Shown piece by piece: positions 15,723 through 25,396 of a stretch of 64,000 nucleotides of DNA. A program made the translations under genes and the position numbers. This DNA comes from Candidatus Latescibacterota bacterium. GTDB taxonomy: Bacteria; Latescibacterota; UBA2968. The notes under the pieces are model-generated. The model was not told the origin of the DNA and searched no databases. It saw only the letters and a program-made list of their open reading frames with translations. How positions within the stretch are numbered: the stretch's first letter is position 1; every line of letters starts with the position of its first letter. The stretch is taken from contig OZ240241.1 of NCBI GenBank assembly GCA_965198115.1, positions 4,736,001 to 4,800,000 on the forward strand, given 5' to 3'.

Positions 15723-17073
15723 TTGAGCCAACCCAACGTCATCTGGATCTTTGGCGATCAACACCGCGCGCAGGCAACCGGTTATATGGGCGATCCCAAC
15801 GCGAGAACGCCCAATCTCGATCGAATGGTCGCCCAGGGCGTCTCCTTCAGGCAGGCCATCTCCGGTTGTCCGTGGTGCACACCCTTCCGTGGCTCCCTCA
15901 TCACCAGCCGCTACACGCATCGTGCCGTCCAGCGCACCCCACAGGCGCTCGACACGAGCCTGCCCACGATCGCCGATACCTTCAACGAAAACGGCTATCG
16001 AACGGCCTGGTTCGGCAAGTGGCACCTCACTGGCGACAACGGCTTGATTCATGTCCCTCGTGAGGCTCGCGGACGTTTCGAGACCTGGATCGGTTACGAA
16101 CAACAACGCCCAGTACAAGTGCTGGGTCCACGGCCACGACGAAGACGGCCGCGACGACACAGATCCATTGCAGGAAAAACTTGAAATCTACGAAACCGAC
16201 GCCCTAACGAATCGCTTCATCGACTACATCGAAAAACGAAAGGACGGCGATCCTTTCTTCGCCGTCCTCAGCGTCCAGCCGCCGCACGGACCCTATGTCG
16301 CACCCCCGGAGTACGAGGCGCACTACAGTCCGGAATCAATCGTACTCCGTCCCAACGTCCCGGATCTACCACGGATCACAGACCGAGTTCGGAAGGATCT
16401 CGCAGGATACTACGCACAAATCGAAAACCTGGACTGGAACGTCGGTCGTATTCTCGACACCCTGGAGAAGCTCGGACTCTACGACAACACACACGTCTTC
16501 TTCTTCAGTGACCACGACGACTCACACGGCTCGAACGGCTCGAACGGCTACTTCGCGAAGAGCAATCCTTTCGAAGAATCTCTGCGGATCCCGTGTATCG
16601 TTCGACCCGCCGGTGGTCGGCGTGTGATCGAATCGAGCGACGCGGCCTTCAACACGGTCGACTTCGCACCAACCACGATGGGGCTATGTGGGATCGACAA
16701 ACCGAACTGGGCGGAGGGCACCGACTACAGCCATCACGTCATCACCGGTCGTCCGCAACCCGAGTCGGAACCAACGTCCGCTTACACTCAACAGTGCGTT
16801 CGCAAGCAGGCCCACTTCGATCGAACCTGGCGAGGCATCCGCACCAACGACGGATGGAAGTACATTTGCATCGAGGGCCAGCCATTCGTGATGTTCAACC
16901 TGAACGAGGACCCCTACGAGACGGTCAACCTCGCCTTCCAGCACGGACACCTTGAAAAACGCCAGGAGCTGCAAACCGAGCTCGCCACCTGGATCGAGCG
17001 CACGCACGATCAGTACCCATTGCCAGAACTGTATGGGGCGACCCACGTGTCGCCCCATAGCCCACGCACGTAG
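15723..17073 (+). CDS. Sulfatase, frameshift near 16098
   Basis: PNVIWIFGDQHR, CTPFR, GKWHL; second frame PPHGPY, SDH, EESLRIP, FNLNEDPYE. Confidence 0.85.
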
Positions 17074-18240: not shown

Positions 18241-19502
18241 GTGCATGGTTTCATAAACATTATTACGTATGTCCTGAACATTATTTGTAGCTTATGTTCT
18301 CCTTCAAAAGGAGGAGAACAATGCCAAGACGTTCGCCTTATGTGGTGCTACTGTCTGAGAAGGAACGGGTCGACCTCGAGCGAATGGCTGGACAATATAC
18401 GTTACCGTATTATCAAGTGATCCGATCGAAAATCGTGCTTCTCGCCGCCGAGGGATTATCCAACAAGATTATCGCCCAACGGTTGGATGTCCCGCGTCCG
18501 ATCGTAAGCAAATGGCGTAAGCGCTTTTTCGAAGAGCGTCTTTCGGGACTCGAAGATAGATCTCGTCCCGGGCGCCCGCCCGGTTTTCCCCCCTCAGGTG
18601 GTCGTTCAGATCAAGGCGCTGGCGTGTGAACTACCGAGCGAGAGCGGGATACCGCTCTCGCGGTTCAGCTGTTCCGAGATTGCCGCCGAGGCAGTGCAAA
18701 GGGGCTTCGTTGCCAAGATCAGCGGCGCCACTGTCTGGCGCTGGTTGAACGAGGACGCGATTCGTCCTTGGTATCATCGCTCCTGGATTTTCCCACGGGA
18801 CCCGGACTTCCAAACCAAAGCAGGTAGAGTCCTTGATCTGTATCACCGCCAATGGCAAGGAAAGCCTTTAGGGCCGAGGGAATATGTACTTTCTGCCGAC
18901 GAAAAGACCAGTATTCAAGCACGAGCTCGCAAGCACGTTACCCTACCGCCAGCCTCGAACAGAGCGGCACGCGTTGAAACACGAATACGAGCGGAAAGGA
19001 GCCCTGGCCTATCTGGCTGCTCTCGACGTGCACAATGGTCGAATCTTCGGTCTCTGTGAGTCTTCTTCGGGTATCGAGCCCTTCAACCGGCTCCTGAGCC
19101 TGATCATGAGCCGGAAACCCTATTGCTCGGCAAAGAAAGTCTACCTCATCGTGGATAATGGCTCCTCGCACCGAGGGCAAACATGCATCGACCGTATCCA
19201 GGGGAAGTGGCCAAACATCCACCCCGTTCACCTTCCGATCCACGCAAGCTGGCTCAATCAGATCGAGATCTACTTCTCGATCCTCAAACGCAAGGCTCTG
19301 ACACCTATCGAATTTGCATCGCTCGAAGAGCTTGAGGCAAGAATCCTCGGTTTTCAGGAACGCTACGGACGTATCGCCACACCCTTCAAATGGAAGTTCA
19401 CACGAACAGATCTCGCGGAGATGATCGACAAACTCAGGTTCTACGATACGCCCTTGGCAAAGTCTGCTTAGAATACGTCACCGTATTTGAGAACAGGAGT
19501 AC
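18241..19502 (+). mobile_element. IS630-family insertion sequence (type A)
   Basis: Flanking TA duplication (18239-40, 19503-04), imperfect terminal IRs ending ACGTAT; transposase with HTH, ADEK, DNGSSH, SWLNQIE. Confidence 0.9.
18321..19471 (+). CDS. IS630 transposase in three frames (slippery T4C6 at 18584; further indel near 18976)
   Basis: ORFs 18294..18629, 18598..19059 and 18884..19471 together give HTH plus DDE domain. Confidence 0.85.
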
Positions 19503-19566: not shown

Positions 19567-21699
19567 ATGTCCGATACGCCTATAATCTGTCTGATCACCA
19601 TCCTCATCGTTTTCACCATCTTTGCGTGGCCGACCCTCGATCACGAGGCCCGCGACGCTAGAATGCTCCAGGTGATCTCGCTCGATGAGGCCGGATTTCT
19701 GAACGTTGTCCAAAATCTCCACGAAACAGGCGATCTGTCGATCGGCCATTTCACCTATCCAGCGCTATACCCCTACCTCGCCCTCATCATCGCAAAAGGG
19801 CAGGGTCTATTTGGAGCCATCACCGACGCGGCAATCATCAAGTCTCTACGTCTGATCTGCCTGGCAGCCGCGCTCCTTACTCTTCTGCTCGCCTATCGCA
19901 TCGGTGCATCCGCCTTCGACCGCGAAACAGGTGTAACGGCCGTTGCCCTCCTCGCCTCGGTCCCCGTCTTCTTCCGCTGGTCGGTCGAAGCGCACCCCGA
20001 TCTGCCACAGCTCGCTTTCCTGACCGCCGGCGTGTACGCCCTGTCACGTGCAGCCAAGCTCGAAACCCTGGGTGACCTGATTGCATCATCGTTATTCGCC
20101 GGTCTCGCCTTCGGCACAAAGTATGGGGGGTTCCTGCTGGTTCCGGCCATCGGGTTCGTGATTTTCAGGGTCGCCACCGATTCACGAACGAAACTTCAGG
20201 CGGGCCTCGCCTGTCTTCTCGTCTTCGCGGCAGCGTTCACGCTCACCAATCCCTACGTCATAGGGAATTGGGACCGGTTCACAGCCGATCTCTCCTTCGT
20301 CGGCAGAATCGTATCCGACGAACCGGATGTGTCACCACTCGCCTGGTTTGGGATTCTCTTCTCACCAGCCATCGGTTTGTTCATCGGAGTGCTACTCGCG
20401 TTAACCTGCGTTTTCTCTCTGACCGGCAAGGGCCCCCTCGCCCGACGAGAAGATCATCTTGTGCTCATCGTATTCGCGGCCACTTGCCTTGTCTTCCTCT
20501 TGATCCGAATCAGGTTCATCCAAGGACAGTATCTGTTGCCGGTCCTACCTGTCTTCGCCGTGGTGGCCGCAAGCGTCTTGCCCAGCCGATGCCGGGCGTG
20601 GGGGCTGCCGGCCAGTGGACGAATCGCTGTTGTCCTCGCCGTGGCCGTCGTGCAAGCCAGCTTCTCTCGCGATGCGTGGTCCGCGCGAGTCCGCGACCTC
20701 ACCGAGGATCCCATCATCGCATCCGGTCTCTGGCTCGAAGAAGCGTATGGATCGAACACCACCATTCTCTTCGACGCCTACGCGTATGTACCCTCGAAAT
20801 TCACCCGCGCGCAGAGCGTGTTCGGACCGTCCTATTCCTTGATCCATCTCCTTGCGCCTGACCTGCTCCTTACCCGATCGAGCATCCGCGATCGATATCG
20901 GAGCCCCGACACGCCCACCGACTTCCGTCTGACCGACGACGCAGCCGAGGCCGCGGACTTCCTCTACCTCCAGAACCAGCGCTACCGAGACATCCACGAC
21001 ACCTACAGCTATCTGGAGAACGGTGTGATCCCGGAATACAGCCTGGTTCGCGATTTCGGTGACGTCACCCTCTACGCCCGACGGGAGCGTGTCGATGCCG
21101 CTCGGTGGGATCGAATCCAGCACGCGCACACAACCGGCACCCTCCCGGCCGTCGCCGCTGCGGGATCGTTTATGTCATTTGGAACCCTGCACGCCACGGC
21201 GGGCAACTACCCCCAGGCCTCCATCCAATACCGAAAGGCGGTCGAAGCCCTTCCCGACAACGCGATGGCCAAGGACCACCTCGCGGCGTCGCTCGCCCAT
21301 CAGGACAGCGTTGAAGTCGCCTGGTCGTTGTGGGAGGAAGCAGAGACGCACTCGAACGACACGGCAAGCATCTGGATCCGCGCCGGCTGGGCGCTCTATG
21401 CGTCAGGCCACTACGAGGCTTCGCGAAACGCCAGCCAACGCGCCATCGAATCGGCACCTGAACATCCTTACCCGCGATTCAACATCGCGCTTGCCCACCT
21501 GGCCGAGGGCAACGTCACAGCTGCGGATTCAGTCTATTCCGCCGCCCTCGAGAACCACGAACTACCTGAAGCCACCGCCAACATTCTCGCTGAACTCAAA
21601 CAAAACGAGGGCCTCTCCCTCGAAGGAATAGCCCTCGTCAATCGCTTGCTGGTGGAACGGGGAAGTTCAGGACGAACCCAGTCCGATCATCCTGAGTAG
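19567..21699 (+). CDS. GT-C/PMT (ArnT-like) membrane glycosyltransferase with C-terminal TPRs
   Basis: Multiple TM helices, DE motif (SLDEAG), HPD, GTKY, TNPY; TPR-like C-terminus. Confidence 0.75.
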   Translation: MSDTPIICLITILIVFTIFAWPTLDHEARDARMLQVISLDEAGFLNVVQNLHETGDLSIGHFTYPALYPYLALIIAKGQGLFGAITDAAIIKSLRLICLAAALLTLLLAYRIGASAFDRETGVTAVALLASVPVFFRWSVEAHPDLPQLAFLTAGVYALSRAAKLETLGDLIASSLFAGLAFGTKYGGFLLVPAIGFVIFRVATDSRTKLQAGLACLLVFAAAFTLTNPYVIGNWDRFTADLSFVGRIVSDEPDVSPLAWFGILFSPAIGLFIGVLLALTCVFSLTGKGPLARREDHLVLIVFAATCLVFLLIRIRFIQGQYLLPVLPVFAVVAASVLPSRCRAWGLPASGRIAVVLAVAVVQASFSRDAWSARVRDLTEDPIIASGLWLEEAYGSNTTILFDAYAYVPSKFTRAQSVFGPSYSLIHLLAPDLLLTRSSIRDRYRSPDTPTDFRLTDDAAEAADFLYLQNQRYRDIHDTYSYLENGVIPEYSLVRDFGDVTLYARRERVDAARWDRIQHAHTTGTLPAVAAAGSFMSFGTLHATAGNYPQASIQYRKAVEALPDNAMAKDHLAASLAHQDSVEVAWSLWEEAETHSNDTASIWIRAGWALYASGHYEASRNASQRAIESAPEHPYPRFNIALAHLAEGNVTAADSVYSAALENHELPEATANILAELKQNEGLSLEGIALVNRLLVERGSSGRTQSDHPE

Positions 21700-21808
21700 A
21701 CGCCTCGCCAGATCCAACGTACGCGACATTTCTAAAGGAGTGTGATCGTCATATCGAAGGACGATCGGACCCTTCTCCCTACTCACTCTCCGTCCTCTTC
21801 CCTTTCCC

Positions 21809-22216
21809 CTACGGCGTCAGCAACGGAATGACGCGTCGCCCGAAGCGGCGATAGCTCCTGAAGTCACTGTCCAAGGTAAACACCCTGTGATCCGGATACA
21901 ACTCGGACATTCGCACGAGACACGCATCCGCGAGCGACATCGGTTGGTCTGCGTATTTCTCCAAGAGTTTCAGAACTTCATCAATCTCAGCTTCCAATGA
22001 AAAGGAGGCCTTCAGGAAGCCTCGCTCCAGCATCGCCCTCAGGCCCGCTGCACCGCTGAACGTTCTGCGTTCGAGTAGGTGAAACGATTCGGTCAACACC
22101 GCCTCGCAAGTAAGGAGTGGCGGCGCAAGCGGATCTGCAGCCTCTATACACCAGTGGTGATAAGGCTCGCTGGGATTGAGTAATGAAACGATGGGTCCAG
22201 CGTCAGCGATGGTCAT
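21809..22216 (-). CDS. vapC: PIN-domain ribonuclease toxin (VapC-like)
   Basis: IADAGP, CEAVLTE, MSLADACLV, FTLDSDF acidic PIN motifs. Confidence 0.9.
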   Translation of the reverse strand: MTIADAGPIVSLLNPSEPYHHWCIEAADPLAPPLLTCEAVLTESFHLLERRTFSGAAGLRAMLERGFLKASFSLEAEIDEVLKLLEKYADQPMSLADACLVRMSELYPDHRVFTLDSDFRSYRRFGRRVIPLLTP

Positions 22217-22473
22217 TTCTTTCGACCGGTGCCGAGGCTGTCTTCACCCAGATCCTCGAGATACTTGGGGTTCGTAGAAAGGTCCGCAGGCCCGTCTACG
22301 GTACCAACGAGATCTCGTATTAGATCCAATGCAGATTGATTCTTTTCGCTCTTTGTCAAGTAGGTCACCAGGGCCTCTCGAACGAGGGAAGACTTGCTAA
22401 CACCCTGTCTCTGTGCCTCGTAAACAATTTCTTTATCGAGCGAATCCGGAACCTTGATCGTAATCGCCTTCAT
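22213..22473 (-). CDS. RHH/CopG antitoxin, copy 3
   Basis: MKAITIKV beta-ribbon, GVSKSSLVREAL, C-terminal GPADLSTNPKY; ATGA overlap with toxin. Confidence 0.85.
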   Translation of the reverse strand: MKAITIKVPDSLDKEIVYEAQRQGVSKSSLVREALVTYLTKSEKNQSALDLIRDLVGTVDGPADLSTNPKYLEDLGEDSLGTGRKK

Positions 22474-22754
22474 TTTTGACTCCTCCTCTGCAACTGGAGA
22501 TGTCCCAAGCTATCTGTCCCAAAGTCCTCCATATATTTCGGATTCGTTGAGAGGTCACTTGGACCTTCACCGTCTGAATCCAACAAGTCTTTGATACGAT
22601 CGTAGACCGAGGGCTCTGAAGAATTCGATGGTTCTGCCAGGTAGGAGGCCAGGGCCTCTCGCACGAGTGACGACTTGCTGATCCCCTGCCTCTGTGCTTC
22701 GTATCTGACTCTCTCATCTATTTCTTCGCTTACTTTGAGCGTAATCGTTTTCAT
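22470..22754 (-). CDS. RHH/CopG antitoxin, copy 2
   Basis: MKTITLKV, GISKSSLVREAL, GPSDLSTNPKY; ATGA overlaps on both sides. Confidence 0.85.
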   Translation of the reverse strand: MKTITLKVSEEIDERVRYEAQRQGISKSSLVREALASYLAEPSNSSEPSVYDRIKDLLDSDGEGPSDLSTNPKYMEDFGTDSLGHLQLQRRSQK

Positions 22755-23026
22755 CGCTCCTCCGCATTCGAATACCCGAGACTGTCCCGACCGAGTCCTT
22801 CCAGGTGTTTCGGGTTAGTAGATAGATCTCCCGGGCCGTCAAACGATCCGATCAGGTGCTTCATCCCTCCATAGACCGACTTTGGTTCATCCTGCTTCTT
22901 GCCATCTCCCAAATAGGCAGCCAGGGCCTCCTTGACGATAGACGACAGGGATACTCCCCTGCGACCCGCCTCGAGCCTGAGCTTCTCCTCGATTTTTTCC
23001 GGAATTCTGATTTTCATCGTCTTCAT
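22751..23026 (-). CDS. RHH/CopG antitoxin, copy 1
   Basis: MKTMKIRI, GVSLSSIVKEAL, GPGDLSTNPKH. Confidence 0.85.
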   Translation of the reverse strand: MKTMKIRIPEKIEEKLRLEAGRRGVSLSSIVKEALAAYLGDGKKQDEPKSVYGGMKHLIGSFDGPGDLSTNPKHLEGLGRDSLGYSNAEER

Positions 23027-23046
23027 CGCACAGCTCTTTCCATTTC

Positions 23047-23093
23047 GTATTACCGTCTGCGCAAAAGGTATTACCTTTGTAGGGTGGCGTCAA
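23047..23093 (-). promoter_or_regulatory. TA operon promoter with overlapping palindromic operator
   Basis: Minus strand TTGACG-17 bp-TACCTT; palindrome AAAGGTA-T-TACCTTT (23064-23078) covers the -10; second GTATTACC at 23047-23054. Confidence 0.7.
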
Positions 23094-23527: not shown

Positions 23528-23576
23528 AGCCCCAAGTAGGCCTTGCAGAGGGGCCTGCGTGGGGCTTTCTGTTTTT
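23528..23576 (+). terminator. Terminator-like hairpin in the 5' leader (possible attenuator)
   Basis: AGCCCCA.GTAGGCC...GGCCTGC.TGGGGCT followed by TTCTGTTTTT, about 50 bp before ATG 23625. Confidence 0.6.
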
Positions 23577-23624
23577 GCGTTGGGAGCTTGTGGGTTTCGG
23601 ACTTTCCGACCGCAGACCAACCAA

Positions 23625-25396
23625 ATGACAAGCCGTTATTCCCTCGCCTTCGTCTGCTGCCTCATTCTCGTCTGCCTGACGTGGACACCCAGGTTGCACG
23701 CTGCAGCCATCTCTTGGGACGGCGGCGGCGACGGCATCAGTTGGGATGATAACACCAACTGGAGCGGGGACGTCCTACCTGGCGGCGCCGATGACGTGAC
23801 CATCAACGTTGGCGGTACTCCAACCATTCTGCACTCCACCGGCACCACTACGATCAACAGCCTGTCTTGCGACGAGAACCTCATCCTTTCAGGCGGATCG
23901 TTGGATCTCGCGGCTGCCTCAACCATTACTGCGAACGGCGCACTCTCCCTGACAGGTGGCACCTTGACGGGGGCCGGCACGTTGACGGTGAACAGTGCGA
24001 TGACGTGGTCGTCCGGCGCGATGAGCGGCACCGGCACCACAGAGATCGCCGGCGGCGCGACGCTGACCATCTCCACCGCCACCGCAAAGACGCTCTCCCA
24101 GCGCACGCTCTCGATCCTGAACACCGGCATCGCCAACGTCACCGGCACCGGACAGATCGGCTTGCAAACCTCCGCCGTCATCGACAACCAGGCCGGCGGC
24201 ACCTTCGACGTCCAGGTCGACGCCAACATCGCCCACACCTTCGGCGCGGTGGTCACCATCAACAACGCCGGCACCTTCCAAAAATCCGGCGGCACGGGCA
24301 CCACACAAATCGGCGGCGGCATCGCGTTCAACAACACAGGATCCGTAAAAGTCCAGATGGGAACCCTCGATTTCGCCGGCACATTTTCAAGTTTCTCGGG
24401 TACAACCCTTACTGGCGGAACCTACGATGTCTCTGGCATATGCAGTTTCCCAGCGCCGACATCGTCACGAACGCGGCCACCATTATCCTGGATGGTGCAG
24501 GTTCACTGATCGAGCCCACGGGCGGGGGCGCCGATGCCATCACGAACTTCGCGACGAACGCGGCTGCCGGCAGTTTCGAGATCAAGAACAGCCGCAATTT
24601 CACGTCGGCTGCGGCCCTGAGCAACGCCGGAACGGTCACGATCGGCACGGGCTCGACATTGACCGTACCCGCCGCCGCCAATTATACGCAGACGTCCGGA
24701 ACGACGACCGTCGACGGCACGCTTACGACAACTGGTATCGTCGACATTCAAGCGGGTTCATCGTTGCTCGGCACCGGGAATGTCAACTCGAACACGACCA
24801 ACGCGGGGTCTACTGGACCGGGAACTTCCGCCGGTCAATTGACGGTGACCGGCAACTACACACAAACATCCGCAGGCACGCTGGATATCGAGCTCGGCGG
24901 CACCACCGTCGCCACACAGTACGATCAGCTGATCGTCACAGGCACGGCTCCCACTTTCAGATGGATCGAGGTTTACGCGGCCAATGGAACGATCAACACC
25001 TCCGACCGGCGCAGGAAGCGCGACATTCGGGACATCGACTACGGGCTGGATGAACTGCAGAAGTTGAAACCGGTCCGATACCGCTGGAAAGATCATCCCG
25101 AACGGGGAGAGCGACTCGGGCTGATCGCGCAGGATGTGCAGGAGGTGATTTCAGAAGTCGTCAACGTCGGAAACGACAAGGACCAAACGCTCGGGGTGTA
25201 TTACTCGGATCTAATTCCGGTACTCATAAAGGGGGTGCAGGAACAGCAGGCAATGATCGAGAGACAGGGAAATGAAATCGAAGAACTCAGGAAGATGGTT
25301 CGTGAGCTCGGCCTCAAGACGGCGGGTGCTGAAGCGGACGTCGATCCAACTTCGGTGTCGCTCGAAAGGGTAACTGACAAAAACGATAAGTCATGA
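23625..25396 (+). CDS. Secreted beta-helix/adhesin-like protein with C-terminal peptidase S74 intramolecular chaperone, frameshift near 24438
   Basis: Signal peptide, ISWDGGG..WDDNTNWS, G/T-rich passenger-like repeats; TSDRRRKRDI...KLKPVRYRW...GLIAQDV...YSDLIPVLIKGVQE and coiled coil. Confidence 0.8.

Follow-up and report, generated by a model that had tools for sequence, protein, structure and literature searches.

A rare VapBC operon with three diverged antitoxin genes upstream of one PIN toxin in a Latescibacterota bacterium

The window, a stretch of 64,000 nucleotides from a Candidatus Latescibacterota genome, carries on its minus strand a four-gene operon, in which three RHH antitoxin genes (A1, A2 and A3) are followed by the gene of a single PIN toxin, T (Table 1). 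At all three junctions (A1/A2, A2/A3 and A3/T) an ATGA sequence forms the overlap between stop and start. A preliminary description of this DNA had recognized three consecutive, intact RHH paralogs with shared motifs, coupled by ATGA and placed before one PIN toxin, and our analysis confirms this layout. The three antitoxins all pass the Pfam RHH_1 cut-off of 20.5 bits (A1 23.1, A2 29.2, A3 27.9). They are full-length homologues, each with both domains, and have their motifs in common. Their C-terminal motif scores are within the range of the family (9th, 19th and 26th percentile). The RHH part of A1 drifts faster (9th percentile), which is only suggestive. No NCBIfam model exceeded its cut-off for the proteins of the operon, and the four proteins matched none of the PADLOC defence-protein families at E 0.01.

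Table 1. Genes and signals of the operon, with positions in the window.
Feature	Position	Strand	Remarks
Sigma70-like promoter TTGACG-17-TACCTT	23065..23093	-	Read from the sequence; -35 at 23093-23088, -10 at 23070-23065
Operator box 1, GTAATAC	23068..23074	-	Centre of a 15-bp palindrome (23064-23078); overlaps the -10
Operator box 2, GTAATAC	23047..23053	-	21 bp from box 1
A1, RHH antitoxin, 91 aa	22751..23026	-	Its subtype apparently accompanies another toxin subtype in other genomes
Shine-Dalgarno (SD) GGAGGAG for A2	22757..22763	-	Within the tail of A1; duplex -9.5 kcal/mol
A2, RHH antitoxin, 94 aa	22470..22754	-	C-terminal subtype of its own
Shine-Dalgarno AGGAGGAG for A3	22480..22487	-	Within the tail of A2; duplex -11.9 kcal/mol
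A3, RHH antitoxin, 86 aa	22213..22473	-	Likely cognate partner of T
Predicted hairpin burying the T start codon	22190..22250	-	No SD; -22.7 kcal/mol, z -2.6
T, VapC (PIN) toxin, 135 aa, VapC20/26-like	21809..22216	-	D5, E43, D97 and D116 intact

The four-gene stretch is covered without a single mismatch by contigs of the runs X1 and X2, which possibly derive from the source sample. In a second sample, X3, one contig of depth 2.8 reaches across the A2/A3 junction. Together these contigs rule out an assembly artefact behind the triple antitoxin. In the surroundings, a sulfatase-like gene and the gene of a repeat-rich secreted protein are split across frames (window positions 15723-17073 and 23559-25396). 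The X1 and X2 contigs carry the same letters there, hence these neighbouring frameshifts are not errors of this assembly alone. An IS630-family element (18261-19490) encodes HTH and DDE_3 parts in split frames. It has 66 genome matches above 1 kb, the top ones being 100% identical, and its contig depth is ~700x vs 8x for the flanks; this is a recent IS expansion. Just downstream of T lies a REP-like element of ~86 bp with conserved ends (21683-21768), of which the genome has 8 other partial or full copies, and a search of Rfam that included it gave no match.

Against the Pfam PIN model, T reaches 22.1 bits (E 2.4e-4), 1.5 bits below the cut-off of 23.6. Its AlphaFold model (pLDDT 94.6) finds VapC26 and VapC20 as best Foldseek matches in the PDB (TM 0.83-0.84, ranks 1-4; 0.84 for 5X3T). 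The same two toxins were the sole matches when a profile of 39 T relatives was compared with solved structures (best E 2e-13), and T is 19-26% identical to them. The acidic active-site residues D5, E43, D97 and D116 are conserved in 118, 120, 120 and 119 of 120 homologues, respectively. Judged by its model, T is a soluble PIN-fold toxin, VapC20/26-like. By analogy, free T may be an RNase, possibly one that cuts the 23S sarcin-ricin loop. The locus thus combines the features of VapBC systems, i.e., a PIN fold with its acidic residues, a coupled upstream RHH antitoxin and operator repeats over the promoter, and departs from their two-gene operon in having four genes.

The presence of several antitoxins raises the question of what they neutralise. 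The preliminary description had suggested that orphan VapC paralogs could be neutralised in trans, and there are at least 12 other PIN genes in the genome that A1 or A2 could serve in this way. Yet all 12 adjoin an upstream ORF of their own (65-101 aa, judged by position and length), none is of the T subfamily, and no further member came up with a profile built from 120 T homologues, the next best domain having an E of 0.72. This explanation is already largely refuted, and we consider it very improbable.

The promoter and the palindrome over it had been named in the preliminary description, and both were found as described. For the operator as a whole, which had been taken for the palindrome plus a half-copy, a pair of GTAATAC boxes with a spacing of 21 bp is the better reading, and the 8.4-Mb genome has no other such pair. 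A generic promoter scan missed the promoter because its -10 matches at just 3/6 positions. The boxes are a property of the family: among de-duplicated stretches of 80 nt ahead of family antitoxins, 76 of 145 contain GTAWTAC, against 0 of 141 control regions taken 300 nt further upstream. With a looser box pattern, the spacing between two boxes in the family is mostly 21-22 bp, and the distance of 19 nt that separates the -35 from box 1 in the window is the commonest one (20 of the 33 matches among 75 box-bearing family loci).

The residues of the ribbon may tell which antitoxins use this operator. A2 and A3 have T5, K7 and K27, whereas A1 has K5, R7 and L27. K7 accompanies the box in 74/112 loci and R7 in 1/25, counts that are not independent since the loci are related. 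At position 5, 129 of 134 family loci have S or T and none has K. Since the canonical residues occur in A2 and A3 and not in A1, we predict that the former two recognize the operator as repressors and that A1 does not. Five verrucomicrobial loci (L031, L032, L042, L045 and L058) have, instead of GTAWTAC, a repeated upstream box that is TGTCTTGC-like. Taken together, the box variants and the table of ribbon residues suggest a readable RHH-operator code.

The translation signals of the four genes are uneven. SD pairing is weak for A1 (-3.3 kcal/mol), comes to -2.4 kcal/mol for T and reaches -9.5 and -11.9 kcal/mol for A2 and A3. Single-pair antitoxins of the family have a median of -3.8 kcal/mol and only 10/100 reach -9, so that the internal sites of A2 and A3 outdo 90 of 100 single-pair starts. 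By this predicted pairing, both internal SD sites are of unusual strength; each is embedded in the end of the coding sequence of the antitoxin gene before it. At the start of T, a fold as stable as the predicted hairpin is seen at only 3 of 77 single-pair family toxin starts. With no SD and a buried start codon, T would be made solely by ribosomes finishing A3, which would ensure an excess of antitoxin.

The three antitoxins had been described as diverged yet intact, and this holds. Their pairwise identity is 45-56%, synonymous sites are saturated (pS 0.79-0.81, pN 0.27-0.33) and all frames are whole. The monophyly of A1, A2 and A3 is rejected (AU test, p=4.85e-5, 22 rows). On the sequence evidence, the three antitoxins are not a local duplication, and a recent local triplication is ruled out by the saturated pS together with the AU test. 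The ATGA overlaps are weak evidence of selection, because 74 of 108 family antitoxins begin with ATGA anyway, and we discounted them as proof of it. Still, the saturated synonymous sites, the strong internal ribosome-binding sites and the family-conserved operator support a three-gene array that is old, intact and beyond chance. Hence, that part of the earlier proposal of a selected array stands; the part that took the genes for simple in-place paralogs does not, as the copies have closer relatives elsewhere.

How common are such arrays? Our survey took in 160 related loci: from genomes, the 80 best of 415, and from metagenomes, the 80 best of 339. Of the 160, 144 have at least 350 nt of upstream sequence. 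A single antitoxin per toxin position was found in 159 of the 160, in line with the one-antitoxin rule stated in the preliminary description, and the search that it had advised for PIN genes with tandem RHH genes returned, besides the window, one rare case (L099). Three other surveyed loci carry a second, separate weak module. Relatives with single antitoxins, which the preliminary description had listed as counting against a selected array, are thus the norm, and in two other tandem loci the upstream copies are broken. In L099, whose DNA we examined, a frameshifted upstream copy is ATGA-coupled to the intact antitoxin, and P0001 is a frameshifted A2-like piece running into an A3-like antitoxin. 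P0242 begins with the tail of an upstream antitoxin, and the A3-type P0007, the A1-type P0248 and the toxin P0125 have the same longest-contig size (1421101 bp). From these traces, at least three other loci of the clade appear to be tandem, two of them with a broken upstream copy. All the tandem signs (L099, P0001/P0242, and P0007 with P0248 and P0125) fall in the clade of A1-A3. The three-antitoxin VapBC is real and it is rare. Family members are present in 19 of 167 other genomes of the phylum, none of them adjacent by coordinates, and the family is absent from the one same-genus genome. Synteny with relatives gave no guidance, the flanking gene being just ~30% identical.

A tree of 110 rows indicates where the antitoxins belong. 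A1 joins P0005, P0008 and P0248 (98/89) and A3 joins P0006, P0007, P0009 and P0010 (99/97), both inside one clade of 16 rows (100/92) that includes one long-branch row, L055. A3 is 69-76% identical to its four companions (76% to P0006), A1 is 63% identical to P0005, and A2 is ~60% identical to both groups. We paired antitoxins with toxins by identical longest-contig size; adjacency itself was seen in DNA just for the window and L099. On this basis, the A3-type P0242, P0246 and P0245 pair with the T-like toxins P0255, P0259 and P0260 (25669, 3097 and 978 bp), and the A1-type P0005, P0008 and P0248 with the toxins P0123, P0261 and P0125 (8116192, 7406310 and 1421101 bp). P0409 pairs in the same way with the toxin P0124. 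The P0255 cluster contains the nearest relatives of T (~75% identical), and the P0006 cluster shares contigs with the closest relatives of T. In a quick tree, the T-like toxins and the partners of A1-type antitoxins form separate branches (99 and 95). A3 is therefore the likely cognate partner of T, as far as such pairings can tell. For the A2 subtype, no partner toxin turned up. In the toxin lineage nearest T, the P0122/P0255 cluster of 7 members, G replaces the first catalytic D in all five full-length members seen, and G also stands at position 118. This toxin type, from a tandem-antitoxin locus, is possibly inactivated, and the loss of the first catalytic D means that the whole sister module may be decaying.

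The toxins of the clade have a near-constant C-terminal third and variable N-terminal two-thirds. T and P0125 are 35% identical over residues 1-86 and 98% identical over residues 87-135, and the N-terminal two-thirds of T have a median identity of 42% with 112 other toxins, so that in this part the clade toxins are as far apart as unrelated members of the family. Among 9 clade toxins, 25 of the 28 pairs with a C-terminal identity of at least 82% have an N-terminal identity below 50% (the count omits three pairs at about 80% C-terminal identity and five lower), vs 4 of the 86 pairs with a C-terminal identity of at least 80% among 103 background toxins, a contrast that is inflated because the clade toxins were retrieved by their likeness to T and picked after the tree. 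The antitoxins mirror this pattern: A2-P0006 and P0005-P0008 are 78-85% identical in the RHH part and 52-62% in the C-terminal half, which puts them in the top 0.5% of 203 background pairs. According to PMC5737657, the antitoxin arm of VapBC26 binds a valley formed by toxin helices 1-4, and this region is the variable part of the clade toxins. Over the 3' third, the DNA of T and of the L099 toxin differs at numerous synonymous positions, so that a recent conversion between the two is excluded, and rapid divergence of the interface is as good an explanation as recombination. It is possible, if on balance doubtful, that VapBC modules of the clade swap a cassette, made of the antitoxin's C-terminal half and the toxin's N-terminal two-thirds, between constant ends, and archive the displaced antitoxins upstream. 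Equally tentative is the idea that such an archive, expressed under the same operator, would act like orphan immunity, recording past toxins and protecting against them. Polymorphic toxin systems have orphan immunity arrays and a variable cassette between constant ends. They differ from the A1-A3/T locus, which has no secretion system.

What could maintain three antitoxins before one toxin? We propose, at slightly under an even chance, that antitoxins of differing specificity were stacked upstream of T and retained as anti-addiction immunity. A3 would neutralise T, its C-terminal arm blocking the PIN active site, and RHH dimers or antitoxin-toxin complexes would repress the promoter via the two boxes, both steps being modelled on VapBC26. 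A1 and A2 would stem from sister modules whose toxins differ in specificity, would still be translated and would confer immunity against those toxins, A2 repressing in addition. Such a stack could arise if a new antitoxin-toxin pair replaced the old toxin behind the same promoter: cells keeping the old antitoxin would survive the left-over old toxin, and so antitoxins would accumulate upstream. Later on, they could persist as an anti-addiction safeguard against related modules or, like copies in other loci, decay. In favour of a stack are the rejected monophyly, the different groups that A1 and A3 join, the contig-size pairings with separate toxin branches, the variable N-terminal part of the clade toxins and its mirror in the antitoxins, the other tandem signs, the SD strengths and the ribbon residues. 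Moreover, paralogous TA pairs that are ~41% identical are insulated from one another (PMC7669267). Against it, a profile search of the genome brought up no toxin subtype that would match A1 or A2. The family is also nearly absent from viral and plasmid collections (one partial match each), and these therefore do not name an invading element.

The GPxDLSTNPK motif is kept in A1, A2 and A3, so each of them could bind T. This argues against the stack and fits an alternative modelled on SpoIISABC: old duplications within the module would have been kept because the copies divide the labour, and T would be bound by A1, A2 and A3 alike. The outcome could be a higher dose of antitoxin or a repression tuned by mixed RHH dimers, and A1 would be a toxin-binder that weakens DNA binding. 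The C-terminal motif scores within the family range and the strong internal SD sites agree with this, and the observed non-monophyly is likewise expected if the duplications predate the divergence of the lineages sampled. There is a precedent, since SpoIISA is neutralised by both SpoIISB and SpoIISC (PMC4926146 and PMC4803016). However, over residues 49-64 A1, A2 and A3 share only 31-38% identity, vs 75-88% within subtypes (this part of A1 is 81% identical to P0005 and 31% to A3). Furthermore, an A1-type gene appears to be the sole clade antitoxin on two large contigs, where the toxin is 35-40% identical to T N-terminally, and the broken upstream copies of two other loci sit badly with shared work on one toxin. 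We regard such a division of labour as unlikely, but as a serious contender.

The same frameshifted copies in L099 and P0001 indicate that upstream copies can be lost, which weakens our proposal of a retained stack and favours yet another explanation: A1 and A2 could be recently orphaned leftovers, now neutral and not yet decayed, whose low dN/dS was earned while they guarded former toxins. A near-identical strain pair appears to be one antitoxin apart (P0007 on the 1421101-bp contig, none listed for the 7406310-bp one), A1 has lost K27, T5 and K7, and many orphan antitoxins are degraded TA systems according to PMC7354431. Yet both A1 and A2 have kept their full length and reading frame, the internal SDs are stronger than most single-pair starts, and A1 has a long branch of its own (0.49-0.53) without a stop or frameshift. 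We find this explanation improbable.

Comparisons with known systems underline these points. VapBC26 and VapC20 of Mycobacterium tuberculosis (PDB 5X3T and 5WZF; PMC5737657) are the best match in sequence and fold and likewise have an RHH antitoxin upstream of a PIN toxin, a palindromic operator and the acidic active-site residues. They differ in having one antitoxin instead of three and in an identity of 26%, and the GPxDLSTNPK arm and the GTAWTAC operator belong to the family studied here. SpoIISABC of Bacillus resembles our locus in joining one toxin to adjacent paralogous antitoxins, and longer forms with four antitoxin genes exist (PMC4926146, PMC4803016). There, however, the toxin SpoIISA is a membrane protein, the genes have separate promoters, and both antitoxins, born of a duplication within the lineage, neutralise the one toxin, whereas here T is a soluble PIN protein and the antitoxins are non-monophyletic and map to different toxin subtypes. 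The tripartite paaR-paaA-parE, omega-epsilon-zeta and pasABC systems also have more than two genes and may split repression from neutralisation, but there the third gene encodes a distinct regulatory or helper protein (PMC4803016), while all three here are full antitoxin paralogs. Orphan antitoxins, or anti-addiction modules, have no cognate toxin in the cell and were proposed to act against incoming toxins. PMC7354431 describes their role as true anti-addiction modules as generally undemonstrated. Unlike them, A1 and A2 are stacked within a type II operon that would be active and autoregulated and whose toxin is cytoplasmic. We found no VapBC with several paralogous antitoxins in the literature; the counts of multi-gene pseudo-operons in TASmania (PMC6504116) may include antitoxin-antitoxin-toxin layouts.

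For the question whether orphan antitoxins act as anti-addiction modules, the locus is a natural test matrix, with three antitoxins, one resident toxin and several sister toxin subtypes that have a near-identical catalytic C terminus. It also suggests how TA pairs could acquire a new specificity while bypassing a lethal intermediate. Even if T is bound by all three antitoxins, it would still be a three-antitoxin VapBC, new against the literature found.

Two further traits of the family concern how its genes overlap and fuse. In some single pairs (P0014-P0020, P0015, L116-L119 and L053/L057) the antitoxin does not end before the toxin start but continues across it in the +1 frame, which creates tails of the DS(M/L) type; an overlapped toxin start of this kind may be the origin of the DSLG tail in A1-A3. 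No fusion of two clade antitoxins was seen among 5 matches to longer proteins, which is weak evidence. The search among representatives yielded one 240-aa protein with two repeats, P0267, outside the clade. Together with P0262, P0263, P0279 and P0352, also outside the clade, it carries two GPxDLSTNPK arms per chain, and some of these proteins have no clear RHH.
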